From positions 1-55,595 of the IMG/VR virus record IMGVR_UViG_3300004807_000027: 55,595 bases of DNA; one strand, written 5' to 3'. Shown in pieces: positions 30,468 through 53,651 of the stretch. The stretch's first letter is position 1; every line of letters starts with the position of its first letter. This stretch comes from a virus. Taxonomy: Duplodnaviria > Caudoviricetes. The translations under genes were made by a program, and so were the position numbers. The notes under the pieces were generated by a model. It worked only from the letters and a program-made list of their open reading frames with translations, made no database searches and had not been told where the DNA came from.

Positions 30468-31193
30468 TTACTTAGTATCTCGCTCCGCAGAAGCAACAAA
30501 ATCATAAAATTCTTTACGAGTTTGTGGTTCGTTCATAAAATCCCCAGATAACTTAGAAGTAATCATAGCACAACCGTGATGCTTTACACCGCGATGGCAA
30601 GCGCAAGTATGGGTACATTTAAGAATAACTGCTACACCCTGATTGCCTGTGCATAGTTGATCAATAGCTTTATGTATCTGAACCGTTAATCCTTCTTGTA
30701 TTTGAGGACGACGAGCATAATGTTCTACAATACGATTAAGTTTAGAAAGACCAATAACCTGACCGTTTTTATCAGGTATGTAAGCTACATGAGCAACACC
30801 AGTAAAAGATAGGTGATGGTGCGAACACATAGATACAACAGGTATATTCATCTGACTAACAATACCATCATAACCATCTGATGGAAAAGTAGTAATCTTA
30901 GGCGGGCCTTCATAGCAACCTTTAATAAGGTCACATACATATGCTTTAGCTACACGACGAGGTGTATCAGCACTATTGACGTCATTACGCCAATCAATAC
31001 GTAGAGCATCTAGAAATGTTGAATACGCTTCTGCTGCTTTATCAATAATAGCTTTCCTATCTTCTTCTGTAGTAATCATACTACTATTAGCTGTAGGAAG
31101 TGTTGGGTGTTTTACTTCGTTTGACATATTAAAAGATTTTACGGACTTAAACTGTTCGCCCGTGGTATAACTCTGATTTGTTGTTGATTCCAT
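30468..31193 (-). CDS. folE: GTP cyclohydrolase I
   Basis: TPRRVAK, SMCSHH, GLSKLNR, RRPQIQE, H.C...RGV. Confidence 0.95.
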
Positions 31194-34393: not shown

Positions 34394-34690
34394 CTACGAT
34401 TGTAGTACCTCTCGTACAACTTTGCTACGACAAAGGTTAGAATTATGCTTTAAAAATAGCAATATTGCTTCCTTCTCATTATCAATTTGTACCATGCGCA
34501 TAAAAACTTTCTTGTATATTTTGTTTTTAATGATTAAACTAAATACTGCAACGCTATTAAGTTTTTTATTGTGTATAATTGAGCAAAACGAACAAAATTT
34601 AAGAATTTCGTTTTCTATTTCCTCTTCAATTAAAGCCCCCATTGGGGTTTCAAGTACTGCGCTTTCTAATGCTCCAATTACACCAGACAT
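34394..34690 (-). CDS. hypothetical protein
   Basis: ORF coupled to the DHH gene. Confidence 0.55.
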   Translation of the reverse strand: MSGVIGALESAVLETPMGALIEEEIENEILKFCSFCSIIHNKKLNSVAVFSLIIKNKIYKKVFMRMVQIDNEKEAILLFLKHNSNLCRSKVVREVLQS

Positions 34691-35610
34691 TATTGTTGAA
34701 TAGGGGTTAATTGTTTAACGAATTCCATAAAGCCTTCGGTAATCTTACCACCGGCTGCATATTCATGACCACCACCGTCACATAGTTTGTTAGCAAGTTT
34801 AGACAAATCAACAGTACATTCTTTCTTTTTTCTGAAAGAGACGTGAGAACTAGAAGCATTAACAAAAAATACAATATCTGCAGGGAATTTCTTGAGAAGA
34901 TAATCGCACACATCATTAACATACTTATTGCCAGTAGTACCTACAATATAAATAGGTTGCTTACTAATGTTAACATTACCTGAGTACACTTCTAAATTCT
35001 TAATGGTGTTATCTCTACCTGTAATGTGATCTTTAATAATATTAACTTCAAACGTGTTAAAACTATCAAACCCGTTATAAAAGCGTTCTATAAACTTATG
35101 CACTCTAGTCATATCTAAAGTGCGTTGAGTGTTAATAAACAAACAGTTAATGTCGTAAGATTCTTTTAATTTAAACTGATAGCTATCATAATCATCAGCA
35201 AGAGCAATAAGGTACTTTTGTGCAGGTGTTAAAGAATCTTTAAGTAGTGATTTAAAGTGAATATATATTTTCTTAGCGCAAGAAGACGTTTCTACTACAT
35301 CTACGGTAGCGTTTTTATAGTTATGTTTATTGTTTACATGTGTGAGGTGATGATCAATAATAATAGCTTTTTTGTTATCGATTAAGTCAACACAACTACT
35401 TGTATCTAAGTCTAGAAACAAAACATTATCATAATTGTCAAAACTATCATCTTCTAGCCACTTTAAGAACTCTTTTCTAAAAGTACTAACAGTGCAGGCT
35501 TTAAATTTAATGTCTCCTAGCTTTGACTTTAATGCCCAATGCAATATTAACAGACTAGTTGCACCGTCTAGGTCAATATCTGTAAAAACATATATGTTGT
35601 TGGGATTCAC
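34690..35610 (-). CDS. DHH/DHHA1 phosphoesterase
   Basis: DIDLDG, LD, IDHH, SFR, GGGHEYAAG. Confidence 0.9.
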   Translation of the reverse strand: MNPNNIYVFTDIDLDGATSLLILHWALKSKLGDIKFKACTVSTFRKEFLKWLEDDSFDNYDNVLFLDLDTSSCVDLIDNKKAIIIDHHLTHVNNKHNYKNATVDVVETSSCAKKIYIHFKSLLKDSLTPAQKYLIALADDYDSYQFKLKESYDINCLFINTQRTLDMTRVHKFIERFYNGFDSFNTFEVNIIKDHITGRDNTIKNLEVYSGNVNISKQPIYIVGTTGNKYVNDVCDYLLKKFPADIVFFVNASSSHVSFRKKKECTVDLSKLANKLCDGGGHEYAAGGKITEGFMEFVKQLTPIQQ

Positions 35611-36992: not shown

Positions 36993-37022
36993 AAAAAAGC
37001 TAAGGTTTCCCTTAGCTTTTTT
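36993..37022 (-). terminator. bidirectional-type intrinsic terminator after uvsX
   Basis: aaaaaagctaagg-GAAA-ccttagctttttt. Confidence 0.85.
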
Positions 37023-38177: not shown

Positions 38178-38525
38178 TTAGTTACCGTCTGCGTCAAAAA
38201 GCTTAATGGTAGGAGCTGGTTGAGCGTTAGATGGTTTAAACATTTCTGTGTATTGACCAATAAGATTTGGCTCAAGCTCTAAATTAGAAGCAAGAGTAAT
38301 CTGTGTTTTACTAAGTGTCCAAGTTGGAAATGCATCCCTGTCTTTAAAAAACTCTCTAAACATTAAAGGATATAATTGTACTTGTAGTTTCTTTTCTTGT
38401 GTAGGAGCTACGTTAAGAATAGCTGGCTTAGTAATAGTAACACTACTATCATCTTGGCTTACAAATGTAGCAACAATAGTACGTTGAATACTGTCTAGGT
38501 AAACGATAATTTGATCTGGGTTCAT
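38178..38525 (-). CDS. hypothetical protein
   Basis: ORF preceded by TTGATT-N16-TAATAT. Confidence 0.65.
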   Translation of the reverse strand: MNPDQIIVYLDSIQRTIVATFVSQDDSSVTITKPAILNVAPTQEKKLQVQLYPLMFREFFKDRDAFPTWTLSKTQITLASNLELEPNLIGQYTEMFKPSNAQPAPTIKLFDADGN

Positions 38526-38561: not shown

Positions 38562-39482
38562 TTATTGACGAGGAAACTTAAAGTAAGGTGCTTTTGCGTT
38601 AATAAGATACCTGTTAAGTAGTTTTTTATGGGATGCCCGTGTAGGAACAATATCCCATCCACCACGTCTTGCATAGTAGCAAGTTACCATAAGTTCTTCT
38701 GGTTGTAATAAGTCCCAAAGGCGTTTATAAGCAGCTTCACAAATTTCTTCATGGAAGTGACATTCATTACGGAATGAAACGATCCACTCTAATAAAGATT
38801 GCTCTGTAACTGCTTTATTACCTTTATAATAAATAAAAATATCCCCCGAATCTGGTTGCTTTGTAATCTTACAGTTAGAACGTAATAGAGTACTCATATA
38901 AAAGTGTTGCTCTGTTGATTCAGTTTCGTTAGCTACTAACAGATCAGCATTCTCGTTAAATACGGTAAACTTAATTTTCTCTGCACTTTTAATTTGTTCT
39001 AATGGACGCCAAATATTAGCACTATGATCTGAAAACCAGACTTTTCTATCTGTTTCAGTTTCAGGATCTGTAATTTGAGAATACAATTCTACTTTAACGT
39101 CAGTCTCTAATAATAAAGATAAGTCTTTAGAAGCTGTTTGCTTAATATTTTTAAGTACTTCTTTGGTATTCTTACCCATCTTCTGCATATTAAATGAGTT
39201 CCAGTATAGTTTCATTGACTTAGATTCTACAATGAAATCATTTTCAGCAGAATAAACTACTTTAGCCACGCAAGTAACAGGTAGACCACTATCTGTTAAT
39301 GCACTACATTCATAACCATTCCAAATGTCGTAACCTACAAAGGGTAAGAAACCATTCTTAAGATCAAGGTAAGTACGGTTACGTTGGCGCTCTTCTCGCA
39401 CCAAAATCTCTGGTGTATACGTGGTAGGAGAATCTACTCTCTGTCCAAGTACTTTGTCAATGTTATTAGTATTATAGCTCAT
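38562..39482 (-). CDS. queF: NADPH-dependent 7-cyano-7-deazaguanine (preQ0) reductase, long bimodular type
   Basis: G.DIWN.YE, VESKSMKLY.NS, LRSNC.IT.QPD, FHEE.CE, YARRGG.DI.P.R. Confidence 0.95.
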   Translation of the reverse strand: MSYNTNNIDKVLGQRVDSPTTYTPEILVREERQRNRTYLDLKNGFLPFVGYDIWNGYECSALTDSGLPVTCVAKVVYSAENDFIVESKSMKLYWNSFNMQKMGKNTKEVLKNIKQTASKDLSLLLETDVKVELYSQITDPETETDRKVWFSDHSANIWRPLEQIKSAEKIKFTVFNENADLLVANETESTEQHFYMSTLLRSNCKITKQPDSGDIFIYYKGNKAVTEQSLLEWIVSFRNECHFHEEICEAAYKRLWDLLQPEELMVTCYYARRGGWDIVPTRASHKKLLNRYLINAKAPYFKFPRQ

Positions 39483-40047
39483 TAGTAAAATCTTTTGTTA
39501 TTGTATTAGTTATAATTTTAGTTCTTTCTTCAACTGTTCCCATAACGTAAACGAGTTTATTAGCAGGCATTGAATGATGCTTTAAATAAAAGTCAAACTG
39601 CTTTACAACCCCATCAAAAAACTCTTTACCTGTGCTTCTTTCACCGTCATCTTTAATATCAAGTTCAGGTACAACGTAAAATATTCTATCATAAACCTTT
39701 AGTAATTCTTCGTATACAGATAAAGCAGCTTGATATACTTCTTTATTAACTTGTCCTTTTTCATAAAAATAAGTCGTATATGCAATACCATCTAAAGCAC
39801 CTCTATCTAAAACCCAGTTACCTGGAGTCAATCCATACTCTAAATGTCTAGCCATTACCAAGTATTGAGTTAGAGAAGTACCACCCTCATTAATAGGTAC
39901 ATTCAAGTCTTTTAACCCTCTAGTTAAATTAGTTCTAAAAGAGAAATGATTGTCGTTTAAAAACAAATCTCCCTTTAGAGTTTTTACTAAAGTAGTTTTA
40001 CCTTGTGAATGAGCGCCACAAATTGTAGCTTTATAGTTTGTTCTCAT
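39472..40047 (-). CDS. P-loop nucleotide kinase-like protein (AAA_28 / dNMP-kinase type)
   Basis: GAHSQGKTT, LDRGALD..AY, DDGER. Confidence 0.75.
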   Translation of the reverse strand: MRTNYKATICGAHSQGKTTLVKTLKGDLFLNDNHFSFRTNLTRGLKDLNVPINEGGTSLTQYLVMARHLEYGLTPGNWVLDRGALDGIAYTTYFYEKGQVNKEVYQAALSVYEELLKVYDRIFYVVPELDIKDDGERSTGKEFFDGVVKQFDFYLKHHSMPANKLVYVMGTVEERTKIITNTITKDFTNEL

Positions 40048-40628
40048 AGTTTATTATTTAATAGGCTTTTGCCCATAAAGCCAACCCAATTATCAATTGA
40101 CAGTTTATGTAAATGCTCAATATATAAATCCACGCTTTTAAAATCCGTATAAAGATCTCCAGTACTAAAACGCATTTCAGATACAACTCTACCTGCATCT
40201 ACTTCAGGTATAACTTCATGAATAACATGACCATGTGTGTTATACTTTTTAATGGGATATGTTTGCCATACTTTAGCTTGTGGGTCTTTACCTTTTAATT
40301 CTGGAAATTTAGTTATAAGTCCTGGATGACCGTTATATATCTTAAACTTACCGCAAATTTCCTGTGGTACAATACGAAGAAAACCGTGTAGTGTAATAAC
40401 ATCTGCATGTCTTATAGCTTCTCTATACTCTTCTACAGTCGGCTTATTTGGTAAAAAAATAAACCGATCAAAACATCTCTCAAGAAGGTTAGGGTTAATT
40501 TTATCTAAATCATTAAAACTTTTATTAGTAATAATTGCATCCGGAAAACGACCTATCTTTGTAGATATTTCGTAAATTTCAGATCCACTCTGAGAGAAAA
40601 AGGTTTTCCAGATTAAAGTGCGTTTCAT
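40044..40628 (-). CDS. PurN-like formyltransferase (DpdN-like)
   Basis: FSQSGSE, LHGFLRIV, NGHPG, HEV..EVDAG. Confidence 0.85.
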   Translation of the reverse strand: MKRTLIWKTFFSQSGSEIYEISTKIGRFPDAIITNKSFNDLDKINPNLLERCFDRFIFLPNKPTVEEYREAIRHADVITLHGFLRIVPQEICGKFKIYNGHPGLITKFPELKGKDPQAKVWQTYPIKKYNTHGHVIHEVIPEVDAGRVVSEMRFSTGDLYTDFKSVDLYIEHLHKLSIDNWVGFMGKSLLNNKL

Positions 40629-40855
40629 AGGTTAAGACGGAACCCTATTGTATTATCACTAAAGAAAATAACAAGTGTAAAATCAACAATACCGTGTTTT
40701 ATTAGGTAAGGTTTGACATCAGATAGCTCTCTTACCGGCAACTCTTGATTCTTAATACAATCCCAAAAATAATAATCCCTAATAGTAATATTATCTGCCA
40801 GGAGATGGGGATAGTTAGCATAAACGGAGTTGGTTATAGCTTCTAATGTAGTCAT
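40625..40855 (-). CDS. small hypothetical protein
   Basis: ATGA overlaps on both sides. Confidence 0.65.
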   Translation of the reverse strand: MTTLEAITNSVYANYPHLLADNITIRDYYFWDCIKNQELPVRELSDVKPYLIKHGIVDFTLVIFFSDNTIGFRLNL

Positions 40856-41658
40856 CCATTAACGTAGTTTCTAAACTGTATCAGATTACTTGCAATAATT
40901 CTCTCCTGTATTTCATCTGGTACTACATCTAAAAGATCTACAAGTTTAGTGGATTCTTTCTTCCAATTACCTATTACATCAGAATATCTTACTCTCTTAA
41001 TACCGTGTACAATAGGAGAAGAAGTATCTAGGGTTTCTATCCAATAGTATTGCGGGCTTTGATAAAAGCTAAACTCTCTCGGATGAGCACAACCTAATAA
41101 ATGATGGGGTTTATCTTTATTAATAATACCGTCGTTCATTAACTGTGTTAAAGTCATTACTCTACCCATCATATAAGATACCCACTTGTTAGGGTGAGGG
41201 AATGCTTTAAGATAATAAGAATAGTCAAATGAAATAGCTAATTTGTCTACACCTATTTCTTGATCTAAAGCTACATAACACTTAACTAGTTCCCCATATG
41301 TCTTGCCTTGTACAACTCCAATAGTCTTAGAACTACTAACAAAGTCCCAATCTTTCCATAAGCACTTCTTAGCTGAATCAATAGTACCTTGACAGTCTTC
41401 TAATACATCTGGTATAATGTATTCTGTAGGATTAAGCTTTTGTATCCAGTGAGCATAACGTTTAGGGTCAAAAGATGTACCTAGTTCAAAGATAGAGTTA
41501 TCTAATAAAACGTGTCTACCACCTTTAACACTATCCTCAAAAAACTTGTAATATTGCGGGTGAGTTTCAAAGAGGTGCACGAGTGCATAGCAGTAATCGT
41601 TGTATGTACGAGATATCTCTAACATACTTAAAGGAGATTCGTGTGATATCTTAATCAT
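40852..41658 (-). CDS. TGT-fold guanine transglycosylase-like protein (DpdA3-like)
   Basis: LLDNSIFE, IPDV, GVVQG, HHLLG, LDTSSP motifs of the TGT barrel; context with queF and a formyltransferase. Confidence 0.75.
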   Translation of the reverse strand: MIKISHESPLSMLEISRTYNDYCYALVHLFETHPQYYKFFEDSVKGGRHVLLDNSIFELGTSFDPKRYAHWIQKLNPTEYIIPDVLEDCQGTIDSAKKCLWKDWDFVSSSKTIGVVQGKTYGELVKCYVALDQEIGVDKLAISFDYSYYLKAFPHPNKWVSYMMGRVMTLTQLMNDGIINKDKPHHLLGCAHPREFSFYQSPQYYWIETLDTSSPIVHGIKRVRYSDVIGNWKKESTKLVDLLDVVPDEIQERIIASNLIQFRNYVNG

Positions 41659-44222
41659 GTGAATAAATCAAATAAGTCGGTTTGTGCTTGATTGTTAAGT
41701 TGAGGTAAATGCCAGTTAAGTGCATTATATACAGCTTTTACTGGTGTGACGATGATTGTATTGAACATTTCTTCATAATCAACATGAAAATCGTTTAATT
41801 CTGGTGGAAAGCTTACTGGAAAGCAAAGAGTGTCAATATTGTACTTGTTAGGGGCAATATATATCTTTTTTACCTTACCACCAGACGTAATACGTTCATA
41901 TTTTGTATCCAAATTACGGTGTTTGAGTAATTGATTGTACCAAATAGCGCCTTTTACGTGGTTAGGAGTTCCTTTTGCAATTTTAAACCCTTCCGCTCTT
42001 ACTTCGTGTTTTTCTATATCACTCAACCCACCTCTAATAGCTACATCGTCAATAGAAAGACTTTTAAAGTTTTCGTATACTTCTCTATAAAGAGCATTTG
42101 CTTTGTTTTGATCCTGTATTAGTAGACTGTTCTCAATAACCTTTTTAATTAACTCTTTAGCTTTTTTAGGTGTGGTAGAACGAGCAATTTCAACGCCAAC
42201 ATACTTGAATTTGTTTACATTAGCACCTTCATCATTTAAAACGTGTATAATGTACCGTTTCTTTTCTAGGTATACTCCTACATCACAAATAGATTCTCTC
42301 TTAAAATAGTAACGAGGGTCTGTAGAGTTAAGAGCATCTTTAGCCCACTGTTCAATGTTTTTATTAAGGTATACCCCTAATTCGTCGTCAATAAACTTTA
42401 ACCCCTCTTTATTAACTTTATTGTTAGTTAATATGTCTAGCTTCATTATATCTAATAACGGTTGAATAGTGACGTGAGTACTATCCGTATCGTTATAGAT
42501 TGTTAATGACTTACCAGTATAGCCTAGTTTTTCTTTAGCGTATTGATCAATAATATCAGATGCTTGCTTAACCACCGACTGACCAGTAAGAGTGATGCTA
42601 CCAGCATGATCACTATCACAAATAGGGCTAAACTTATTAGCAAAAACACCGTAGATAGAGTTGAGAAGAATTTTGATGACATGCTGTATGGTGTCAGCTC
42701 GTTCCATATTAAACTTACACGTTTTGTATTCATCTGTATCAGGGGTTAGGTCGCTTAATTTTTTCTTTAAACTAACATATTGGTTTTTGTTTACAATTCG
42801 CTCTTTGTATAAACTATCAATTAAAGAAGGCACTACACCTCTTTTCTTTTGAGTGTAAAGTACATTTGCTTTGGATATAGCGAGCTTCTCTACTTGTACA
42901 AATTGTACAAATTGCTCGTTAGACATTTTAAAGTCTTTTTTATTTGAAGCTAGACGTACTGTAACCCCATTATCATCTTTATTAACTATCTTACCGACCT
43001 TTGTCTCCGGGGATATATTCAGGGTAATGATAGTGCTAGGGTATAGTGAGTTAGCGTCATAACTTACAATTGACTTCTGCAAACCTCTTTCAGGGTCTTT
43101 AACAAATCCACCTGGTACTTCTTCTCTAATTGGTCCTTCAACGAAAGTAGGTATAATCATACCGTGTTTATATGCTTCTAAAGCAACACACCCGGTAACA
43201 ATAGATACTTTACCTAAAGCAGCTTCAAACGACGTTAAACCTTTATAAGCTAACATACGAATGATTTTAAAGAACTGTAATTTCTTTTCCATTCGTACTA
43301 ACAGATCAACGTCTTGTATGTTATAATCAACAAAGTTATTCCAATCGTTAGTAGAAAGAGAGGCTAGGTTGGTAGCATTGATAGCTAGTTTACCTTCTCC
43401 CAGTTCATGTTGTGCTACAAAGTTAAGAGCATAAGACTCTAACAAACCACGCGCAAAACCTCTATATACTTCAAGGTAATCCATTGCTGATACACCATGT
43501 ATGTACCAGCGATCTAATTCTTGACCCTTAACGAAGATACCTTTACGGCACCATAAACTCTTTACAGGAGACAAACGCTTTGATTGCTCTTCACCAAGAA
43601 TATTGTTAATACGATTAATAAGGTAAGGAAAATCGAAAAAGTCCGTGTTCCAACCAGATAATATGTCAGGAAAGTAATCGTTTTCCCAGAACTCTAAAAA
43701 CTTCTCTAACAAATCATACTCGCTAGTGCATTCAGTGTAAACAACGTTCGTACGAGAAGGAGTATAAGGCTTACAACCCCAAGTGTAAAAAGTCTCCGAA
43801 AGATTATCATAAATGGTAATAAGGTTGATAGGGTGTTTTGCATCTTTAGCTTCAGGAAACTCATCTGGTGAATATACTTCGATATCTAAAAAGCATACCT
43901 TTAATGGGTTTATAGAGAATTCAGGCTTCTCATAATCGTTCTTATATGTATCAATAAGAAACTGCTGCTCTACTTGTATGTTATGATAAAGTCTTTTTAT
44001 TGCTCCATCTTGAGCGGCTTTATTGCGTTCAAAGTTACTTTCAAAGACTTTCTTCTTTAACTTTGTATTAAAGATAGAAAGTCCGTCAACAGTATCTGAA
44101 TTAGTTTCTATGTAGAAATAAGGAAGGTGTCGTTGTTTCTTAACAATACGATTACCTTGCTCATCCCACGTAAAAAGATAGCAGTTACTTTCTCTTTGAT
44201 TATAATAAACGTTTCTATACAC
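41655..44222 (-). CDS. gp43: family B DNA polymerase gp43-like
   Basis: DIE, GWN..FFD, YNIQD exonuclease motifs; DANSLYPS, KILLNSIYG, YNDTDS, KKRY. Confidence 0.97.
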   Translation of the reverse strand: MYRNVYYNQRESNCYLFTWDEQGNRIVKKQRHLPYFYIETNSDTVDGLSIFNTKLKKKVFESNFERNKAAQDGAIKRLYHNIQVEQQFLIDTYKNDYEKPEFSINPLKVCFLDIEVYSPDEFPEAKDAKHPINLITIYDNLSETFYTWGCKPYTPSRTNVVYTECTSEYDLLEKFLEFWENDYFPDILSGWNTDFFDFPYLINRINNILGEEQSKRLSPVKSLWCRKGIFVKGQELDRWYIHGVSAMDYLEVYRGFARGLLESYALNFVAQHELGEGKLAINATNLASLSTNDWNNFVDYNIQDVDLLVRMEKKLQFFKIIRMLAYKGLTSFEAALGKVSIVTGCVALEAYKHGMIIPTFVEGPIREEVPGGFVKDPERGLQKSIVSYDANSLYPSTIITLNISPETKVGKIVNKDDNGVTVRLASNKKDFKMSNEQFVQFVQVEKLAISKANVLYTQKKRGVVPSLIDSLYKERIVNKNQYVSLKKKLSDLTPDTDEYKTCKFNMERADTIQHVIKILLNSIYGVFANKFSPICDSDHAGSITLTGQSVVKQASDIIDQYAKEKLGYTGKSLTIYNDTDSTHVTIQPLLDIMKLDILTNNKVNKEGLKFIDDELGVYLNKNIEQWAKDALNSTDPRYYFKRESICDVGVYLEKKRYIIHVLNDEGANVNKFKYVGVEIARSTTPKKAKELIKKVIENSLLIQDQNKANALYREVYENFKSLSIDDVAIRGGLSDIEKHEVRAEGFKIAKGTPNHVKGAIWYNQLLKHRNLDTKYERITSGGKVKKIYIAPNKYNIDTLCFPVSFPPELNDFHVDYEEMFNTIIVTPVKAVYNALNWHLPQLNNQAQTDLFDLFT

Positions 44223-44230
44223 AGCCCATT

Positions 44231-44258
44231 ATTATGGGACCATTTACGAACTTATCAA
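44231..44258 (-). promoter_or_regulatory. sigma70-like promoter TTGATA-N16-CATAAT overlapping a small hairpin
   Basis: Same 16-nt spacer; GTG start 8 nt downstream. Confidence 0.5.
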
Positions 44259-45427
44259 GAGAAATATAGACTACAATACTCATTAATATGGTCTTCTAAC
44301 CAATACTTGCATGCGTTTTTACGGGCAAGATCTGATTCAGTAAGATAGCGCTTACGATCAGACATAACTTTCTTAATAATTTCAATCATTTCTTCACCGG
44401 TATTAAACTTTAACGGTGCATCCTTATAAGGTTCTAAGTTTTGACATACACAAGGTAAGCCTAAAGCCCCGGCTTCAATATGTTTAATATTAGCTTTAGC
44501 AAGATTAAATTTATTATTTTGCAAAGGTGCAATAACAATATTGACGTTTAAAGCATTAAATGTAGAAGGGTAATCCCATATGCGAGTCCAACCTACATAT
44601 TCGATTTCTCCACTTCTGACGTGTTCAGCAAGTTCAGCAGGACATCCGCCCATTAGCACCCATTTAAACTGTTTAAGAGTCTTTTTAATAACATTAACAA
44701 TATCACCAAAGTCGTCTTTTACATCTTTCAAGCCAGCTATATTAAAATGCGTAGGGCTTCCAATATAACCTACTCGTGGTCGACGTTTGTTATCTTCGTA
44801 ATTATCCGAAATCTTACTCTTTACATAGAAACGGTCCATCCAGAACTTAGGCATGTAATTAGGCAATGTAATGCCCCTTACTCCAGACCTTTCTTCGTAG
44901 TATTTTGACATATAATCTGTAGGGGCAGTAATACCATCACAAAGCTGCATAATTTGTATTGCGGTTTTAGCAATGTTAGGATCTGTAAAGGCTTCACGTG
45001 CTTTGTTATAAACTGGAATGTCTTCAGCAAATATAACGTCATCAATTTCGTAATATATCTTAAAGTTATTAGTCTTATTAGATATATTTCTTAAAAACTG
45101 TACAAACTGTAACTGAGTAGGTGTAACTTGTCTTTGTATTCTTACACTTCTTACATCTTGATAGAAGTTTTCCTGCAAAATCATGAAGTTATTGTTATTA
45201 ATAATACCTAATTGATTACCATTAATAATAGCTTCAGGCCAGTGCATTCTCCAGAATCCGCAGCCTTGATGATCTGCAGCATAACTTACTGCACGTTTCA
45301 TATCTTGAGGTATACCTGTAGGCATGCTTACAGGTGTTGGTTGGCTGTTTGCTAACGGGCTACCTATTGTAGGTGCACCGAAAGGTAATTGAGGGGCTCC
45401 GAAGACTCCACCGTTATTAGACATCAT
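44255..45427 (-). CDS. GT-B glycosyltransferase-like protein
   Basis: GCGFWR..WP, QR, YEIDD, G.IGSPTH, IAPL..N.FN.AKANIKHIE. Confidence 0.75.
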   Translation of the reverse strand: MMSNNGGVFGAPQLPFGAPTIGSPLANSQPTPVSMPTGIPQDMKRAVSYAADHQGCGFWRMHWPEAIINGNQLGIINNNNFMILQENFYQDVRSVRIQRQVTPTQLQFVQFLRNISNKTNNFKIYYEIDDVIFAEDIPVYNKAREAFTDPNIAKTAIQIMQLCDGITAPTDYMSKYYEERSGVRGITLPNYMPKFWMDRFYVKSKISDNYEDNKRRPRVGYIGSPTHFNIAGLKDVKDDFGDIVNVIKKTLKQFKWVLMGGCPAELAEHVRSGEIEYVGWTRIWDYPSTFNALNVNIVIAPLQNNKFNLAKANIKHIEAGALGLPCVCQNLEPYKDAPLKFNTGEEMIEIIKKVMSDRKRYLTESDLARKNACKYWLEDHINEYCSLYFS

Positions 45428-47225
45428 AATTGGTTGTTCTAGTTGTTATACCGTTTCTTTTTTCAAGATAAACGATTTCCCCGCCAATACAATACTTTTT
45501 ACTTTCTTTGCGGTGTGAAATAATGTAAATTGATTCATTATAATTATCTACTCGATCTTTAAGAATATCAAGTACTAACTCAATGCCTTTCTCGTCTAAA
45601 GATGAGTCGAGAAGTTCGTCAAACATACTTAAATTAATCCAAACATCTGCTTGTGCTCTACGTATATCTTGAAATGTAAATAGCATTGCAAGGTCAATTG
45701 CTTTACGTTCAGCTCCAGAAAAATTAAAGTAGCTACACTCGCTACCTCTTTCATTAGTAATAGTTTCTTCAAAGTATTCATTAAATGTAACGATACTATT
45801 ACTTTCAAGCTTACGCAAATAAAAGGCTAGTCTTGTATTAAGAACCTGAAGTATTTTCTTTACGATAAACGACTTTACACCTTCTTCTGAAGCAATATAC
45901 TTAGCGGACTCAATAATATCGAGTTTTTCTTGAAAAGCCGTAATGTTCTTTTTTATTTCCTCTTGTCTTGCAGTAATGCCATCGATAATTTCTTGAAAAT
46001 TATTAGAATCATTATTAAGTTGATCTATATCTACAACAAGGGATTGTAACCACTCGTTTAATTGCTTTATACGGTTATTGTTAGATTCTACATCTTTACG
46101 ACGTATTAAAAAGTCGTTTAACTTAGTTTGAGTATCAGTAATAGACTTTTCTATCTTTAAAATACTGTCTCGAGCTTTATCTAAACGTGGGGCTTCCTTA
46201 GCTAGTGTTTCGTTAGCATCTGAAATGTACTTTTCGTACTCAGCTTTGTCTTTTTCGTATTCAATGTTAAGGTTACCACCACAGTGAGGACACTTACTGT
46301 CTGTTTTTTGTAATTTCTTAAGACGTTCTGTATAGAACTTAAGGTTAGCATTTGCTTCTGCAACACTCTTATTAATAGCATCAACTTTCTTATTAAAAGC
46401 TACTTTAGCGTCTTTCCAGTTCTTTAATTCTGTTTCAACCGCTTTTTGAGCTTCTACATCTACAGACTCTAAACTATTGAGTTTTTCTTTTATTACAACT
46501 AGCTCTTGTTCGTTATTCTTTTGACGTTGTAACAGTACTGCTAATCTCTTTTTCTTAGATTCTTCATGTGTATCTTTCTGTTTATTTGCTTCTAATAAAG
46601 AACGAGCTGTTTCATTTAGTTTTGAGTCTTCAATATCTAAACTCTTTTTTACTTCATTGAATTCGGTACGCGCTAACAAAAGCATATTACCAAACACCTC
46701 TAAACCTAAAATACCTTCAATAAATTTACGCTTTTCTACTTTCTTTTGAGCCATAAACGGTATAGTACTGTTTAAGGTCATAATAACAGTATTCTGAAAT
46801 ATTTCAGAAGTAGTACCTATTGTCTTTACAATAAGCTCCGTAGTTTGAGGTATACCAGAACGAGACATATCTACTCCGTTCTCGAAAAAGTAACACTTAG
46901 TAGGATTTATAGTTCTAATTATTTTGTAATTATTAACTGCATCTCCTGTATGAATATCAAAGTCTAGCTCTACTTCACATAAAGCTTCTGGGGCTTGATC
47001 ATTAACAATGTTTTCCTTCTTAAGCTCTCGTATAGAGTTACCGAACAACGCAAAATGCATTGCATCAGCAATAGTAGATTTACCTACTCCATTAGCTCTA
47101 TCAGCTTTATCATAGTTCTTACCGGTAATAATATTTAAACCGGGTTTATAATCAATCTCTACAGGCTTCTTGCCTATAGATAAGAAGTTAAAAGCCTTTA
47201 AGTGCTTAAAGTGTACATAACGCAT
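45417..47225 (-). CDS. gp46: recombination endonuclease ATPase gp46 (SbcC/Rad50-like)
   Basis: NFLSIG, NGVGKST, CPHC hook, FSGAE, DELLDSSLD, ISH. Confidence 0.95.
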   Translation of the reverse strand: MRYVHFKHLKAFNFLSIGKKPVEIDYKPGLNIITGKNYDKADRANGVGKSTIADAMHFALFGNSIRELKKENIVNDQAPEALCEVELDFDIHTGDAVNNYKIIRTINPTKCYFFENGVDMSRSGIPQTTELIVKTIGTTSEIFQNTVIMTLNSTIPFMAQKKVEKRKFIEGILGLEVFGNMLLLARTEFNEVKKSLDIEDSKLNETARSLLEANKQKDTHEESKKKRLAVLLQRQKNNEQELVVIKEKLNSLESVDVEAQKAVETELKNWKDAKVAFNKKVDAINKSVAEANANLKFYTERLKKLQKTDSKCPHCGGNLNIEYEKDKAEYEKYISDANETLAKEAPRLDKARDSILKIEKSITDTQTKLNDFLIRRKDVESNNNRIKQLNEWLQSLVVDIDQLNNDSNNFQEIIDGITARQEEIKKNITAFQEKLDIIESAKYIASEEGVKSFIVKKILQVLNTRLAFYLRKLESNSIVTFNEYFEETITNERGSECSYFNFSGAERKAIDLAMLFTFQDIRRAQADVWINLSMFDELLDSSLDEKGIELVLDILKDRVDNYNESIYIISHRKESKKYCIGGEIVYLEKRNGITTRTTNYDV

Positions 47226-47245
47226 CAGTTATGATTATAGTCTCT

Positions 47246-48004
47246 CTATACGGAAAGCCAGGACCAAGTACTGATATGTTGCATTAATTCCTCTTTGGAC
47301 ATATCAACTATCCTGTTAAATTCCGCTACATTCTTTGTGTAGTTAGGATTGGATTCGTTGCTATTAATGCTTCTACTATGATTTATATGATATAATGGAC
47401 CTTTTACTCTACCTACATTATAACCGAGTTTAACAAAACGACGAAACCTTTCCCAATCTTCTGCACCCCAGGAAATAAAGTTTTCATTTTCCATACCACC
47501 TTTAATAAACACTTTTTTGTTCCATAAAATAGCGCCACCCACAGAATTACTACCAAAATTAGGGTAATTTGCAGGATCTAATTCATCTACATTAAATGTA
47601 TTGTTTAAAGCTTCTCTTGGTATGTTAACAAACAAGCCGCCATAAGGATAAACAAAATCTACATCATTAGATCTTAAGATCTTTACCGCTTTTACTACTT
47701 GTTTAATAGGGAACAAAACATCACAATCATAATTGACTATGTAGTCTGTTCTAGATAAACGCGCCATTTCATTTAAGTAGCGAGTACGATGAAATAGCCC
47801 GTTACCTTCTTCATATATGTGAATAATGCTACTATCCTTAAAGTCTACTAACTTTTTAGGTCCGTTCTCGTAAATGATAATATTAGTATCAAAGTTAGTC
47901 TGTAAATATGATACAATATATTTTAAATTAAACGCTCTATCTTCACTATCAATTCTGATAGGTATATTAAATGTAACGTTTTTTAAATCTATTTTAGTTT
48001 GCAT
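47246..48004 (-). CDS. GT-A glycosyltransferase with galactosyltransferase (GT7-C) motif
   Basis: YDCDV, GGMENENFISWGAED. Confidence 0.8.
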   Translation of the reverse strand: MQTKIDLKNVTFNIPIRIDSEDRAFNLKYIVSYLQTNFDTNIIIYENGPKKLVDFKDSSIIHIYEEGNGLFHRTRYLNEMARLSRTDYIVNYDCDVLFPIKQVVKAVKILRSNDVDFVYPYGGLFVNIPREALNNTFNVDELDPANYPNFGSNSVGGAILWNKKVFIKGGMENENFISWGAEDWERFRRFVKLGYNVGRVKGPLYHINHSRSINSNESNPNYTKNVAEFNRIVDMSKEELMQHISTWSWLSV

Positions 48005-48650
48005 ATTTCCAGTAAGTTGAAAGGGTGTGGTGTATGTTTCTATCTCTTAATAGAAACAAATCGCAAGGTATTTTTTTAATTGGTATACGTTTAGTTTTAA
48101 GCATATGAGTTATTAACTCTTCTCCAGATGTTATTTTAACACCAACTTTAAAATAATTAGTAATATTATCGTAAATCTCTCCGTATAACTTCATATTATT
48201 AGAAGTAGAAAAGTTTAACCAATCAGATATAACTAAAGGATTAGCACATACATTAGGTGAAAACACCCCTTCTGTAAGATTGTACGAAGCAGGATCAAGT
48301 CTAGATTCAAGACCGATATCAAACCGAGTACGTATAACTACATCATATTTGAAGTTATTAGCTAATTCATATTCTGCTAAAAGTCTTAAACTATCTTTAA
48401 TAGAATAAAACATACTAAAATGTATAAAAGCAGCTGGAGAGCATTCTTGTACTTCAGGTGGTACTACTTCTTTTTGAGGTTCTACAAGTATAGCTTTAGG
48501 TTCATACAAGTAACAATCCTTATTGAGAGGTCCTTCCCAAGTATGTATGAATATATCGTAATTGTTAAAGTCTACAAGATTTCTGCGAAGTGTTTCTAAA
48601 CCTTCAACCACAAAACGACTTTGACCTGAAAATGATATAGCTTTTCTCAT
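47994..48650 (-). CDS. putative glycosyltransferase-like protein
   Basis: AISFSGQSR, DIFIHTW, KYDVVIRTRFD motifs seen in polysaccharide-locus proteins. Confidence 0.55.
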   Translation of the reverse strand: MRKAISFSGQSRFVVEGLETLRRNLVDFNNYDIFIHTWEGPLNKDCYLYEPKAILVEPQKEVVPPEVQECSPAAFIHFSMFYSIKDSLRLLAEYELANNFKYDVVIRTRFDIGLESRLDPASYNLTEGVFSPNVCANPLVISDWLNFSTSNNMKLYGEIYDNITNYFKVGVKITSGEELITHMLKTKRIPIKKIPCDLFLLRDRNIHHTLSTYWKYAN

Positions 48651-48967
48651 AAAAGTACTTTATCACTTGGTACTGAAGGCCATTTTACTACGATTAAATC
48701 TACATCGTTTATAATATAAACATCAGATACTTCATTAGGATGATATACAAACATATCTCCTGCTTTTAATATCTTATTATCAATCTTTAAAGCCCCGTTT
48801 ACAATGTATGTTAATTCCGTTACTATTTTATGAGTGTGTAACGGACCTTTATAACCAGCTACATGATGGTGATGAGCCACTTCAAAGAAAGGGTTTTTAA
48901 ATACAGCTGGATTAAAATCTCCAATAAACCAACCGTTGTTGAAATCTTTTATGTTATAAGTGTCCAT
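48647..48967 (-). CDS. cupin-fold protein
   Basis: GWFIGDF.P, H.HK...E, K.PS..DK. Confidence 0.7.
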   Translation of the reverse strand: MDTYNIKDFNNGWFIGDFNPAVFKNPFFEVAHHHHVAGYKGPLHTHKIVTELTYIVNGALKIDNKILKAGDMFVYHPNEVSDVYIINDVDLIVVKWPSVPSDKVLL

Positions 48968-50126
48968 AGCTACTTTCTATCTTTTGTATACGAGCACAAT
49001 GTCTACCGCCTTCAAACGTAGTGCGTTTAAATATACTAATATATTCTACAAGTTTATCTACATTAGTAATACGTGTGGGTATAGAGAAAAAGTTACAGCA
49101 ATTATGTTTAATTGAGTTTTCAGCACTTATTTCATCGTATATTAATGCAGACCTTATACCATCTGTTTTATTAGCTGCAATATTAACAGCTTGCCCGGTA
49201 TAACAAAAGCCAATACCATGAGTACAAGTACCGTTTTTAATAAACGTTATTGCTTGAGATATATAATCAAACTGATCACAGTCTTTATTTGTAAAGCACC
49301 CTAAATCAATGTATTCATAATTAAAAGCACTAAGAATGGTCTTACACCTTTCCTTAAGTTCAAAACCGCTGTGATCACTAGCAAGTGCTATTTTACCTTT
49401 ACCAAAATGGTTTAGCACTCGAGTAGTAAAGAATTTATATTCTTCAGGTGTACCCATAATAAACATCTCGTCAACGTCTTTTATAGTAACCTTTAAACCG
49501 TCTTCTATCATTAAATTGTAAAGAGGAGTAATATAGAACTCATTACGGGTACGCAGATTCTTTTTTATCATTTTTTCTGCATACTTTACAAATACCTTAC
49601 CTGTTTTAAACCCGTATACCCCAACGCATGCATTATTGCTGACTACTTCTTTTTCTGCAGTTAATAATGCATAGTTGTTTGAAGTACCGTCAGTTTTTAC
49701 GTAACTGTAAGCAGGGTTATTGCTTTTAAATGTTAATACATTACCGTCTTCACTAAGATCAAAAGGCTTAAAAATAGGTTTAAAGTGTACGTCTACAGTA
49801 TATATAAAAAGCGGTAAATTATTATTAATGTGCTGCTTAGCTAATAAACAAGTAGAAACACTACCGTCTGTTACTCTATCAATAACTACTATTTGTATAT
49901 CTCTACCGAATTTCTTTCGAAATATTTCATCTACTCCAAAATTATTAATATGATCTTGTCGTAAACAAAATATTAAGTTACATTCAGATGTATCAATAGA
50001 ACTCAATGCCCAGTCAATTAAGTGCTTATCATAAGCAGTAATCATGTACTTTGGTACAACAAATCCTTCATCAACAAAGCGTTGACCACGACCAGCAAGA
50101 GGTACTAAAAGGTTATACTTTTTCAT
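48954..50126 (-). CDS. sugar nucleotidyltransferase fused to RpiB/LacAB isomerase
   Basis: N-terminal PLAGRGQRF...PK, EK, NEFY..P.YN, GTPE; C-terminal SDHSG, CYTG...AANK..IR, FEGGRH. Confidence 0.85.
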   Translation of the reverse strand: MKKYNLLVPLAGRGQRFVDEGFVVPKYMITAYDKHLIDWALSSIDTSECNLIFCLRQDHINNFGVDEIFRKKFGRDIQIVVIDRVTDGSVSTCLLAKQHINNNLPLFIYTVDVHFKPIFKPFDLSEDGNVLTFKSNNPAYSYVKTDGTSNNYALLTAEKEVVSNNACVGVYGFKTGKVFVKYAEKMIKKNLRTRNEFYITPLYNLMIEDGLKVTIKDVDEMFIMGTPEEYKFFTTRVLNHFGKGKIALASDHSGFELKERCKTILSAFNYEYIDLGCFTNKDCDQFDYISQAITFIKNGTCTHGIGFCYTGQAVNIAANKTDGIRSALIYDEISAENSIKHNCCNFFSIPTRITNVDKLVEYISIFKRTTFEGGRHCARIQKIESSYGHL

Positions 50127-50796
50127 TTTTGAAGTGTTTGGTTAACTCATTATGAGCGTTTTGTATTACCTTAGGAAGGTCTCTTGTACTATCAAGTAAT
50201 CCTGCTAATATATATGCGGCAAATTTGTCTCCAGCTCCAAGTACATTAATGTCTGGAACAAGCTCTGCTTCAAAGTAGTATTTCGTACCGCTTTTACTGT
50301 ATAAAATGCTGCCACTTGAGCTGTGTTGCAGTACATTACCTCTTACTGACTTGCAAAGGCTTGATATATTAAGATGATGTGAATCCTCATCTGATATTAG
50401 TAGAAGATCTATATAATCTAAGCTAGAATCATATACATTTAAAGGTGTACCGTTGCAAGTATCAGCTACATTAATGCCGTCTAGTTTTGAAATAAAACTT
50501 CTATCGTGCAACTCATTTAAATACATTATATGATTAATCTTACTAGAATGTATAAAGGGTGATTGAGTTTTTAAAGACAAACGGGATATACTCGTGCGTT
50601 TACATTGTTTAACATCAACCATTATCAATGACTCTCCTATATCAGTAGGTTCTACTTTAACCTTAAAATGAGGATTGATTGTTTTAAGCTGATTCCAAAC
50701 ATTACCTATACATCCCGCAGAAAATCTGTTTTTAAAATCTTCGTATATGTTGTCATAGCTTAGATGCCCGTAAAGTGTTATATCAAAATTTTTCAT
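50113..50796 (-). CDS. PfkB/ribokinase-family kinase (short)
   Basis: NVLGAGDKFAA anion-hole motif. Confidence 0.7.
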   Translation of the reverse strand: MKNFDITLYGHLSYDNIYEDFKNRFSAGCIGNVWNQLKTINPHFKVKVEPTDIGESLIMVDVKQCKRTSISRLSLKTQSPFIHSSKINHIMYLNELHDRSFISKLDGINVADTCNGTPLNVYDSSLDYIDLLLISDEDSHHLNISSLCKSVRGNVLQHSSSGSILYSKSGTKYYFEAELVPDINVLGAGDKFAAYILAGLLDSTRDLPKVIQNAHNELTKHFKNEKV

Positions 50797-51304
50797 TACG
50801 GTCCCATTTAATTAAAACATCCACGGTTGGCTCAAAAACCATACCTTTTAATAAAAAATACTCAAATAGTTTAACAATTACTCCTTCTCCGCCTTTAACT
50901 TCGAGGTCAATTGCAACTTTCTTAACGCTATTGGGAGAATCTGAAGGGCAAAAACTATACCCTACTTGATTCATTATGTTAATATCAAAGACATCATCTC
51001 CAACATATACCATGTCTAAGCTTTCTACATTATAACGAGTCTCAAATTTTGGTATGTAGGTTGCTTTGTCTACCATACCGCCACTATCTCTATTGTTAAA
51101 GAAATCTATGTTTCTGTTATTTGCTACTGCTTCATTAACGTTAGTATCTCCAGAAAGAAACACTATATCCCAGCCATTAGCTTTAAATTGCTTAATAGCT
51201 GTAAAATCCTTATCATTAAAGGTTTTGTATATGCCTTTACCGGTATTATCGTAATACTTTTTACCGTCAGTTAGTACACCATCAACGTCTAAGACTATTA
51301 ACAT
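50783..51304 (-). CDS. KdsC-like HAD phosphatase
   Basis: LDVDGVLTDG, K.F..KD, YVGDDVFD, GGEG. Confidence 0.88.
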   Translation of the reverse strand: MLIVLDVDGVLTDGKKYYDNTGKGIYKTFNDKDFTAIKQFKANGWDIVFLSGDTNVNEAVANNRNIDFFNNRDSGGMVDKATYIPKFETRYNVESLDMVYVGDDVFDINIMNQVGYSFCPSDSPNSVKKVAIDLEVKGGEGVIVKLFEYFLLKGMVFEPTVDVLIKWDRNEKF

Positions 51305-51746
51305 AATCTTTATAATAATATATATTATCAGAACAAATTCCAGCAAAATCTAATAAATGTTCAGATGCAAATGTCCATCTCGGATCCTCTGGCATTACAC
51401 AGATAGCATCTTTATAAGCTTTTTTATATGTCGGGCTTAACCATATAAAACCAGCGGTTGTTACTACAAAATCGTCTTTATCTATACTAAAACAGTTAAC
51501 CGCATAATGCTTAATTTGATTTAAAGCTTCTATATTTTTACAATGTAGCCAAAGGTTATCTTGTGCAATAAACTCAAACTCTACATTATACTGAGGGGCA
51601 TCATGCCCAAGATAAAAATCTTCATCTATGTACCACAAATCTATTTCCACATTAAACCCATGATCTAAACAGTATTTTATTTGATCGGGGTGGTTCTCTT
51701 TATCGGATTTACCATTAAGATTACCTCTATGTGAAATATAACGCAT
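51282..51746 (-). CDS. GDPD/PLC-like phosphodiesterase-fold protein
   Basis: ISHRGN, EN, VEIDLW, LGHD, WLHCKN, GICSD. Confidence 0.7.
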   Translation of the reverse strand: MRYISHRGNLNGKSDKENHPDQIKYCLDHGFNVEIDLWYIDEDFYLGHDAPQYNVEFEFIAQDNLWLHCKNIEALNQIKHYAVNCFSIDKDDFVVTTAGFIWLSPTYKKAYKDAICVMPEDPRWTFASEHLLDFAGICSDNIYYYKDYVNSLRR

Positions 51747-53650: not shown

Positions 53651-53651
53651 G

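Follow-up and report, generated by a model that had tools for sequence, protein, structure and literature searches.

The window analysed here, the whole of IMG/VR viral record IMGVR_UViG_3300004807_000027 (55,595 bases, rated 26% complete, G+C ~34%), carries on its minus strand a gene cassette that is an uncultured, apparently abundant freshwater member of the published DpdA3/DpdN system, and not a new system. In that system, deoxyguanosine (dG) in phage DNA is replaced by formyl-preQ1 (fdPreQ1). The genes run in the order PolB, a protein with the fold of tRNA-guanine transglycosylase (TGT) that we identify as DpdA3, the small ORF76, a PurN-like formyltransferase (DpdN), a P-loop kinase and QueF. 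By analogy with a cultured relative, Flavobacterium phage immuto, it is very probable that DpdA3/DpdN chemistry leaves the virion DNA with fdPreQ1 in place of essentially all dG, and that this DNA resists restriction.

A six-gene cassette headed by the polymerase of a T4-like phage

The block opens with PolB, a family B (T4 gp43-type) DNA polymerase of 855 amino acids (aa) (41655-44222; PF00136 79 bits, PF03104 68 bits, phrog_262 E 1.8e-188), and continues with the 268-aa DpdA3 (40852-41658), called from its similarity to immuto DpdA and its TGT-fold model, ORF76 (40625-40855), a small conserved protein called as an open reading frame (ORF), the 194-aa DpdN (40044-40628), the 191-aa kinase (39472-40047) and the 306-aa bimodular QueF (38562-39482). 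Overlaps of 4 nt (ATGA) join PolB to DpdA3, DpdA3 to ORF76, ORF76 to DpdN and DpdN to the kinase, the kinase and QueF overlap by 11 nt, and gaps of 32 nt before PolB and 36 nt after QueF bound the whole. An earlier, sequence-only reading had described six genes with overlapping start and stop codons directly behind polB in a T4-like phage; all six ORFs are present on the minus strand as it placed them, and gp32, UvsX-like RecA, Rad50/Mre11 and the gp43-type PolB agree with the phage type. The surrounding replication and recombination genes encode Rad50-like, Mre11-like and UvsX-like RecA proteins, a DnaB-type helicase, gp32, a clamp-like protein and a 5'-3' exonuclease. PolB finds its closest cultured-phage matches in the gp43 proteins of cyanomyovirus, Sinorhizobium and Pseudomonas T4-like phages, at only ~30-31% identity, and the operon, as a megablast query, matched none of 50,697 phage records. 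These data are best explained by a translationally coupled block within the replication module of an uncultured freshwater T4-like phage.

The gene order of the window recurs in immuto: DpdA3, a small ORF (50 aa), DpdN (annotated 'phosphoribosylglycinamide formyltransferase'), an AAA_28 kinase (annotated 'thymidylate kinase') and a bimodular QueF, with FolE nearby. Identity between the two phages is 49% for DpdA3, 43% for DpdN, 34% for the kinase, 42% for QueF and 59% for FolE. The small ORFs, by contrast, are not recognisably homologous; a relationship between ORF76 and the 50-aa ORF in the same place was considered and rejected at 19% identity. The setting differs as well: the window block overlaps a family B T4-type PolB upstream, whereas immuto has a family A polymerase three genes downstream, and the window's nucleotide hydrolase is of PF18909 type and 10 kb off, whereas that of immuto is of PRA-PH/MazG type and two genes upstream.

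The passages of Cui 2023 (PMC10516641) that deal with these phages, to which our citations of that paper refer, report that immuto DNA has lost its dG peak and holds 345,000 fdPreQ1 per 10^6 nt, with no dPreQ1 detected; DpdN is proposed there as the formylase, a 'potential' and undemonstrated activity. The fdPreQ1 system is credited to a single cultured phage family plus three uncultured sequences, and the DpdA3 phages immuto, CP220 and phiST are described as completely modified, tests of DpdA3 in E. coli having been unsuccessful (Cui 2023). Because the window shares its gene set and order with a phage whose published DNA is fully converted from dG to fdPreQ1, fdPreQ1 DNA is the likely product here too. 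The sequence-only reading had drawn a link between DpdA3, a PurN-like DpdN and fdPreQ1 in a Flavobacterium phage, which the published work bears out. It had also expected formyl-preQ1 to replace 'much of its dG'; replacement is retained on homology, but 'much' should probably read 'all', by analogy with immuto, CP220 and phiST.

The TGT-fold protein is DpdA3

The 268-aa protein is a DpdA3-type enzyme of TGT fold and not a tRNA TGT, as four observations together indicate: firstly, it resembles DpdA3 proteins throughout, with 48.9% identity over 100% to 'DpdA' of immuto (YP_010114477), 42.6% over 99% to a hypothetical protein of the Campylobacter CP220 group, 25% over 72% to CGPG_00065 of Cellulophaga phiST, ~25% to some Bacillus phage proteins and a match to phrog_19058 (E 1.2e-50); secondly, no Pfam or NCBIfam model, TGT (PF01702) included, matched it at E up to 0.01; thirdly, it has no conserved Cys cluster able to form the TGT zinc site, C127 and C190, isolated from each other, being the only invariant Cys among 18 close homologues and none being invariant over all DpdA3 lineages; fourthly, at 268 aa against 375 aa it is ~100 residues shorter than E. 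coli Tgt. The zinc site of TGT lies towards the C-terminus and consists of three Cys and one His. Sixteen sequences spanning all DpdA3 lineages share invariant D53, D84, T92, R166, H186, L188, G189, D211 and N258, with Q117-G118 nearly invariant. Immuto, the CP220 group and phiST are the phages from which DpdA3 was defined (Cui 2023).

The fold is evident from structure prediction. An AlphaFold2 (AF2) model built from 18 homologues scored 88.8 for predicted local distance difference (pLDDT) and 0.87 for predicted template modelling (pTM), and its top 50 Foldseek matches in the PDB were all tRNA-guanine or archaeosine TGTs (E from 2e-8). VIA aligned ~230 residues with TGTs at Z 17.0-17.5 and root-mean-square deviations (rmsd) of 3.0-3.3, among them 1iq8_A (Z 17.5, 231 aligned, rmsd 3.0) and the Z. 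mobilis TGT (Z 17.2, 230 aligned, rmsd 3.2). At the level of sequence, a profile of the 18 homologues found nothing among PDB sequences at E up to 10, and hhalign joined the DpdA3 profile to one of E. coli Tgt and five DpdA1/2 proteins (Prob 86%, E 5.4e-6), setting D53 on the Asp of L-T-D-S-G-G in E. coli Tgt and D211 on the conserved D-S-S of the DpdA1/2 consensus. In a weak alignment (E 0.014), I-G-V-V-Q-G-K of DpdA3 corresponds to F-G-I-I-Q-G-S of E. coli Tgt and K-P-H-H-L-L-G-C to K-P-R-Y-L-M-G-V-G. We take the aligned Asp residues and the Q-G and L-G motifs to be catalytic and base-binding residues of TGT. The sequence-only reading of 40852-41658 as a TGT-like protein of DpdA type is thus upheld by the structure and profile comparisons with TGT and DpdA1/2, which give a TGT fold and a DpdA3 grouping. 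Whole-protein charge was dropped as a proxy for DNA binding, being non-discriminating: the isoelectric point (pI) of DpdA3 proteins ranges over 4.9-7.1 and that of E. coli Tgt is 6.0.

The formyltransferase and the preQ1 pathway

Sequence comparison makes the formyltransferase orthologous to the named DpdN, as the sequence-only reading had it: it is 43% (tblastn) or 46% (alignment) identical to immuto DpdN (YP_010114479.1) and, as there, sits between DpdA3 and the kinase. It scores 27.2 bits against PF00551 (cut-off 26.1) and 30.5 against the PurN model TIGR00639 (cut-off 150). N99-x-H101-P102 and D144 align with N-I-H-P and L-D-G-G of E. coli PurN and are invariant in 9/9 sequences, PurN included; the PurN Asn, His and Asp to which N99, H101 and D144 align are presumably catalytic. 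The N-terminal S-x-S-G-S-E loop aligns with the S-G-N-G-S-N loop of PurN, which we assume binds the 5'-phosphate of the PurN substrate, and so gives a weak hint that DpdN would fit a phosphorylated substrate.

QueF matches QueF_N (PF14819, 92.6 bits) and QueF (PF14489, 70.3 bits), and TIGR03138 at 219 bits, under the cut-off of 293. Its C204, E86-S87-K88-S89-x-K91-L92-Y93 and F243-H244-E245 (H-F-H-E-E) are invariant with E. coli QueF. Of the four longer DpdA3 homologues, two (P0121, 531 aa; P0123, 568 aa) fuse an N-terminal DpdA3 to a C-terminal bimodular QueF, which ties the supply of preQ1 to DpdA3. The other two are P0122, which bears a NUMOD3 homing-endonuclease motif, and P0124 (586 aa), whose extension is without assignment.

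GTP cyclohydrolase I, FolE (30468-31193, minus strand; PF01227, 162.5 bits), catalyses the first step to preQ0; FolE and QueF are the preQ1-pathway genes found in the window. A whole FolE-to-QueF pathway in the same phage was the criterion used by Cui 2023. The sequence-only reading had named FolE, QueD, QueE and QueC as the background pathway, of which FolE is in the window and the other three were not found there. In the proposed scheme, GTP would be converted to preQ0, with QueD, QueE and QueC expected on the missing part of the genome or from the host, and QueF would reduce the nitrile of preQ0 to give preQ1. DpdA3 would then swap guanine for the 7-deazaguanine base at deoxyribose C1', and DpdN would formylate the aminomethyl group at a stage that we infer, its donor being 10-formyl-tetrahydrofolate by analogy with PurN.

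ORF76 had no match in Pfam, NCBIfam or PHROG, and a look-up in the ESM Atlas gave no usable match. It is present in 30 of the 38 loci compared below, including the variant without DpdN and QueF. Complex prediction for DpdA3 with ORF76 scored 0.01 against a mark of 0.32, which is uninformative in both directions.

Relation to other 7-deazaguanine systems

CP220, a Campylobacter Firehammervirus, has a DpdA3 43% identical to that of the window and, directly after it, a homologous AAA_28 kinase (32-34% identity). It differs in that QueF and DpdN are not next to DpdA3, an HD-domain/AAA_33 kinase fusion stands directly upstream and the base is dADG, which fully replaces dG in this group (Crippen 2019, as relayed by Cui 2023 and Hutinet 2019). 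The genes flanking the distant DpdA3 of phiST (25%) encode a P-loop AAA_18 protein and a MazG-like pyrophosphatase; this phage has a kinase of another subfamily than the window's, neither QueF nor DpdN beside DpdA3, and a different base, dG being fully replaced by 7-deazaguanine (dDG) (Cui 2023). The same account describes phiST CGPG_00066 as having no homologues in other 7-deazaguanine phages. Two phiST-like loci extend this picture. One (L086:4043-11427) holds a phosphoribosyltransferase, a dCTP-deaminase/dUTPase-like gene, a 304-aa AAA_18 protein, DpdA3, two unknown ORFs and a Pol III alpha-type polymerase, and the other (L088:3489-11486) has a DNA ligase between its AAA_18 protein and DpdA3 together with a family C polymerase. 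The polymerase near DpdA3 varies: the window has one of family B, immuto and Bacillus phage BSTP12 have one of family A, and L086 and L088 one of family C.

DpdA1/2 systems (9g, Iggy, BcepGomr, Dp-1, Calamitous) likewise rely on exchange by a TGT-superfamily enzyme and on phage FolE, QueD, QueE and QueC. In the DpdA1 phages 9g, Iggy and BcepGomr, dpdA lies one to four genes from clamp and polymerase genes, and dnaN comes just after it in Dp-1. The DpdA1/2 proteins are longer than the window's DpdA3 (306-346 aa by annotated coordinates). Replacement in DpdA1 phages is partial: generally 0.1-30% (Cui 2023), up to 27% in 9g (Hutinet 2019) and ~16.5% in Iggy, according to the abstract of its paper. 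A ParB-like gene stands beside dpdA in the DpdA2 system of Mycobacterium phage Calamitous (L095:1-1829) and in that of a Fusobacterium phage, whereas DpdA3 has a kinase in that place; the ParB-like neighbour recalls the bacterial DpdA/DpdB pair. No ParB-like domain of the kind expected of a DpdB-type partner was found among the 40 window proteins scanned with Pfam.

Distribution and variants of the cassette

The locus counts given in this paper refer to the best 80 of 200 DpdA3 relatives retained from a scan of IMG/VR, with genes downstream counted in the 38 loci that have at least 3.8 kb on that side and PolB upstream in the 64 that have at least 2.7 kb. As many loci are near-identical, the counts describe one lineage and not independent events. 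Downstream of DpdA3, 28 of the 38 read ORF76-DpdN-kinase-QueF, 8 read DpdN-kinase-QueF and 2 read ORF76-kinase only, so that DpdN, kinase and QueF stand in the window's order in 36/38. This arrangement is not due to chance. PolB lies directly upstream of DpdA3 in 58/64 loci; the remaining 6 form a separate branch with FolE upstream, like immuto. In two loci (L045 and L055), ~785 nt separate PolB from DpdA3 where the others overlap, and this insert may be a mobile ORF.

DpdN and QueF come and go as a pair: 36/38 loci have both and 2/38 neither. The two exceptions (L073:10001-13100 and L075:1193-4292) read PolB, DpdA3 (59% identity), ORF76, kinase, ORF115 and UvsX, and should carry a different 7-deazaguanine. 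Since this variant keeps the kinase, the kinase goes with DpdA3 rather than with formyl-preQ1 chemistry; DpdA3 and the kinase thus form the core, and QueF and DpdN an add-on that fixes the final chemistry.

Beyond these loci, metagenome proteins yielded 3,863 DpdA3 relatives (90%-identity protein clusters, E up to 1e-5, from 3,987 candidates scored), none of them named. The operon itself was recovered in 20 runs from 18 studies at 87-97% of sampled words, all of them metagenomes of freshwater, lake water or freshwater sediment from 2012-2020. In IMG/VR, no loci were found for DpdA3 of the Bacillus-phage type or for the fusion P0121.

A kinase accompanies DpdA3

The kinase (AAA_28 36.5 bits; phrog_2107 'thymidylate kinase', E 2.4e-20) has the Walker A sequence GAHSQGKT, and its G11-x4-G16-K17-T18, D81-R82, a D-R motif following strand 2, and R137, the lid Arg, are invariant in 10/10 sequences. 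As modelled by AF2 (pLDDT 87.3), it has the deoxynucleoside/thymidylate-kinase (dNK/TMPK) fold. The VIA top 50 contained nucleoside and nucleotide kinases only (Z 14.4-16.1, ~175 residues, rmsd ~3), the best structural matches being the ribosylnicotinamide kinase domain of NadR, human deoxyguanosine kinase, dCK, thymidylate kinases, dAK and Dm-dNK, and Foldseek gave E values from 1e-6. A polynucleotide kinase serving in DNA-end healing was considered; none occurred among the 50 best structural matches, a result that does not exclude such a role.

Strong homologues of this kinase (E 1e-14 or better) occurred in 18 of the 50,697 phage records, 14 from Campylobacter phages and 4 from the immuto group, and wherever coordinates were compared each lay ~50 nt downstream of DpdA3. 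A weak homologue (E 1e-4 to 1e-3), annotated as thymidylate kinase, is found in 30 Streptomyces phages of ~131-136 kb; it adjoins a methyltransferase in several of them, and none of the 30 is among the matches of the DpdA3 search.

Across lineages, a small P-loop kinase flanks DpdA3 in all seven examined, with clear Pfam matches in five. Within the window's clade it is present in 38/38 loci. The immuto kinase scores 50.6 bits against AAA_28 and CP220 gp057 scores 48.3 bits, CP220 having in addition gp055 (HD plus AAA_33); the phiST protein matches AAA_18 at a borderline 29.8 bits (cut-off 29.4) and that of L086 at 33.8 bits. The two weak calls are BSTP12_039, which has a Walker A motif and a dNK match at E 0.013, and the L088 protein, at 26.4 bits under the AAA_18 cut-off and with the DNA ligase gene intervening before DpdA3. 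Because these kinases belong to different subfamilies, the association of kinase and DpdA3 must have been assembled more than once. In the five DpdA1/2 control phages, by contrast, annotations near dpdA showed a kinase beside it in 0/5, and among unannotated neighbours 0/8 matched a kinase family and 0/10 had a Walker A motif. The main text of Cui 2023 contains no instance of the word 'kinase'.

Nucleotide hydrolases near DpdA3

In 5/7 lineages a nucleotide hydrolase is encoded near DpdA3, each time from a different and unrelated family: a PF18909 protein in the window, a PRA-PH/MazG-like protein in immuto, an HD protein in CP220, MazG in phiST and a dCTP-deaminase/dUTPase-like protein in L086. 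Phosphoribosyltransferase genes are likewise found near DpdA3 in immuto and L086. The window protein (51746-52060, minus strand) resembles dATP/dGTP diphosphohydrolases, matching PF18909 over the whole profile length at 82.1 bits and phrog_801, 'dATP/dGTP pyrophosphohydrolase', at E 1.3e-23; phmmer found no match for it in the PDB. From these matches it is a candidate remover of the dGTP pool and supplier of dGMP, its connection with the cassette being conjectural.

Base exchange before or after replication

We consider the chances even that the cassette works by a pre-replicative route, in which the base is exchanged at the level of a free deoxyguanosine nucleotide or nucleoside and not on DNA. 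In its strict form, to which we give slightly less than even chances, this reading holds that DpdA3 would not be a DNA transglycosylase but the first TGT-fold enzyme to perform base exchange on deoxyguanosine in free form, as nucleotide or nucleoside, within a pre-replicative 7-deaza-dGTP pathway. The PF18909 protein would remove dGTP and yield dGMP; DpdA3 would swap the base of a free nucleotide or nucleoside, its presumed substrate; the conserved dNK/TMPK-fold kinase would rephosphorylate the product, again a presumed substrate; and host NDP kinase would complete the triphosphate for incorporation by PolB. QueF and DpdN would act on the free base or on the nucleotide, with the fdPreQ1 deoxynucleoside triphosphate (dNTP) as the true polymerase substrate.

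The nucleotide-level route is favoured by the repeated, non-orthologous recruitment of kinases, the nearby hydrolases, full replacement, the failed E. coli tests and a free ADG nucleoside, which has been seen in the cytoplasm of CP220-infected cells, according to Cui 2023. If it holds, a DpdA3 acting on nucleotides would account for the restriction of 100% replacement to DpdA3 phages. The idea is not new: according to Hutinet 2019, Crippen 2019 had put forward a modified-dGTP route for Campylobacter phages. Hutinet 2019 also noted that undetected deoxyribosyltransferases could not be ruled out. The proposal gave way to 'post-replication' once DpdA3 had been found (Cui 2023).

There is precedent for the logic of such a pathway. 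T4 makes hydroxymethylcytosine (hmC) DNA with the gp56 dCTPase, the gp42 dCMP hydroxymethylase, the gp1 deoxynucleoside monophosphate (dNMP) kinase and the gp43 polymerase, and Z-genomes are made with MazZ, PurZ and DatZ. To our knowledge, every complete phage base replacement that has been resolved mechanistically, these two included, works through the dNTP pool. The pre-replicative reading resembles both in its steps, namely to destroy the canonical dNTP to the monophosphate, modify it, rephosphorylate it with a phage kinase and incorporate it with a phage polymerase, and the window has predicted counterparts, known from genes alone, in the PF18909 gene, the base-exchange enzyme, the dNK/TMPK-fold kinase and the gp43-type PolB. 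It differs from T4 and the Z-genomes in that its base-modifying enzyme has a transglycosylase fold, for which nucleotide substrates are without precedent.

The sequence-only reading had taken the operon running out of polB as its cue for nucleotide-level synthesis. Polymerase coupling is real in the window's clade, yet we rejected it as evidence for nucleotide-level incorporation: dpdA of 9g, Iggy and BcepGomr also stands beside clamp and polymerase genes. Since these partially modifying DpdA1 phages adjoin such genes as well, polymerase coupling is not diagnostic, and the polymerases of other DpdA3 phages are moreover of family A or C. The conserved kinase and the nearby hydrolases are better evidence for the nucleotide-level idea than adjacency to polB.

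The strongest competitor yields the same fdPreQ1 product after replication, and we judge it a substantial possibility, somewhat short of an even one: PolB would make G-containing DNA, DpdA3 would then insert preQ1 or formyl-preQ1 into it, DpdN would formylate either dPreQ1 in DNA or the free base, and kinase and hydrolase would be ordinary supply or salvage genes. This accords with the membership of DpdA3, with its conserved Asp pair, in the TGT/DpdA superfamily, whose characterised members act on polynucleotides, and with the insertion of preQ0 into DNA ascribed to bacterial DpdA in the abstract of PMC10164549. The phosphoribosyltransferases of immuto and L086 would fit a guanine-salvage loop, which either route needs, and PF18909 is not universal among DpdA3 phages. 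Post-replicative insertion leaves several observations unexplained, however: kinases of different subfamilies stand beside every DpdA3 lineage and beside dpdA in none of the five DpdA1/2 controls, the kinase is retained with DpdA3 after the loss of DpdN and QueF, only the DpdA3 subfamily reaches 100%, and DpdA3 gave no DNA modification in E. coli. Counting further against it, DpdA3 is shorter than E. coli Tgt and lacks the zinc-site Cys cluster.

A number of points weigh against the nucleotide-level route and the scheme of which it is part. We know of no member of the TGT/DpdA superfamily that acts on a mononucleotide or nucleoside, the characterised ones acting on tRNA or DNA. The kinase could serve general dNMP supply or the salvage of released guanine, and its call falls under Pfam thresholds in 2/7 lineages. 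MazG, HD and dUTPase-like genes are common in phages, and genes for replication and nucleotide metabolism cluster there anyway; hydrolase proximity is accordingly weak evidence. The PF18909 gene lies 10 kb from the cassette in the window, and only 10/34 related loci whose flank is long enough have it, ~7.5 kb upstream of DpdA3. We rejected it as a partner common to all DpdA3 phages, since a search whose positive control worked found it in 0/4 of immuto, CP220, BSTP12 and phiST. Most of the 80 loci belong to one clade and do not count as independent. Searches for QueC, PTPS/QueD and radical-SAM (QueE) proteins found none in the window, a fragment of 26% completeness, and the product of this phage is predicted from homology at 43-49% identity. 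Finally, the presence of DpdA in every such phage has been taken as a sign of post-replicative insertion (Cui 2023). Taken together, pre- and post-replicative exchange are about evenly matched, with a small share left to a different product or to RNA.

Other products considered

An active cassette could make a base other than fdPreQ1, which we regard as improbable; examples would be plain dPreQ1, the PurN-like protein then working elsewhere in purine or one-carbon metabolism, or a base derivatised further by the neighbouring glycosyl- and methyltransferases. The low scores of DpdN on PF00551 and TIGR00639 leave its substrate undefined by sequence, its activity is described as 'potential' even in immuto (Cui 2023), and a conserved GT1-like gene lies between Rad50 and PolB, followed by a sugar-metabolism island. 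Synteny with immuto, however, is position for position, and fdPreQ1 only, without dPreQ1, is reported from that phage (Cui 2023). The DpdN residues aligned with the catalytic positions of PurN are invariant, and the joint gain and loss of DpdN and QueF (36/38 both, 2 neither) is as expected if DpdN acts on the product of QueF. The variant that lacks QueF and DpdN retains the GT1-like gene at 83% identity; this gene is therefore independent of preQ1.

Queuosine is carried by tRNAs with G-U-N anticodons. A cassette that modifies RNA, a queuosine-precursor pathway with a tRNA transglycosylase tuning host or phage tRNAs, is very unlikely even though QueF and FolE are enzymes of the queuosine pathway and the fold is that of TGT, given that the protein matches no Pfam or NCBIfam TGT model and groups with the DpdA3 of three phages with fully substituted DNA, that the tRNAs of the window (all on the minus strand) are Glu(TTC) twice (21261-21335, 23062-23136) and Pro(TGG) (26061-26137), not tRNAs with G-U-N anticodons, and that a formyltransferase is without a place in queuosine synthesis.

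Genes and sites around the cassette

ORF115 (38178-38525, minus strand), a conserved gene between QueF and UvsX with no Pfam or NCBIfam match, is found 3' of the cassette in the loci that reach that far, including the variant without DpdN and QueF, and is possibly in the same transcription unit. A tentative promoter-like site (44231-44258, minus strand; 10/12 consensus matches) falls within the 32-nt gap before PolB; it is weak, because such sites occur in the region at the frequency expected by chance (36 seen against 38.7 +/- 5.7 expected). Just past UvsX, a sequence scan found a 13-bp perfect palindromic hairpin with A/T runs (36993-37022), also tentative, which resembles a bidirectional terminator and may end a PolB-to-UvsX unit.

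Upstream of PolB, a sugar and glycosyltransferase island occupies 44255-54467 on the minus strand. Its 390-aa GT1-like gene, which sits between PolB and Rad50, shows 55-83% identity across related loci. The other members are a GT2/GT7C-like gene, an RpiB/LacAB fusion of 390 aa, genes for a PfkB-like kinase and a HAD hydrolase, fucosyltransferase-type genes (GT10- and GT11-like) and a further GT2; DNA, virion or host surface are candidate targets. On the other side, a DHH/DHHA1 phosphoesterase (34690-35610) lies downstream of the helicase gene towards gp32, and further downstream are a ClpP-like protease (26918-27481) and a Methyltransf_24 methyltransferase (25457-26023).

Implications

The cassette is a fixed part of the replication module in a large uncultured T4-like lineage that recurs in freshwater and lake metagenomes. 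This recurrence, together with the 3,863 DpdA3 clusters, suggests that fully G-substituted DNA may be common in lakes, which bears on escape from restriction and CRISPR, on sequencing bias and on how viromes are read. Comparison across lineages exposes DpdA3 and its kinase as a conserved core, the kinase being a feature on which the main text of Cui 2023 is silent, and the kinase and hydrolase context makes the question of pre- or post-replicative exchange directly testable. Should exchange prove to be pre-replicative, it would add a new class of reaction to the TGT superfamily and make 7-substituted 7-deaza-dNTPs, useful as reagents, accessible enzymatically.

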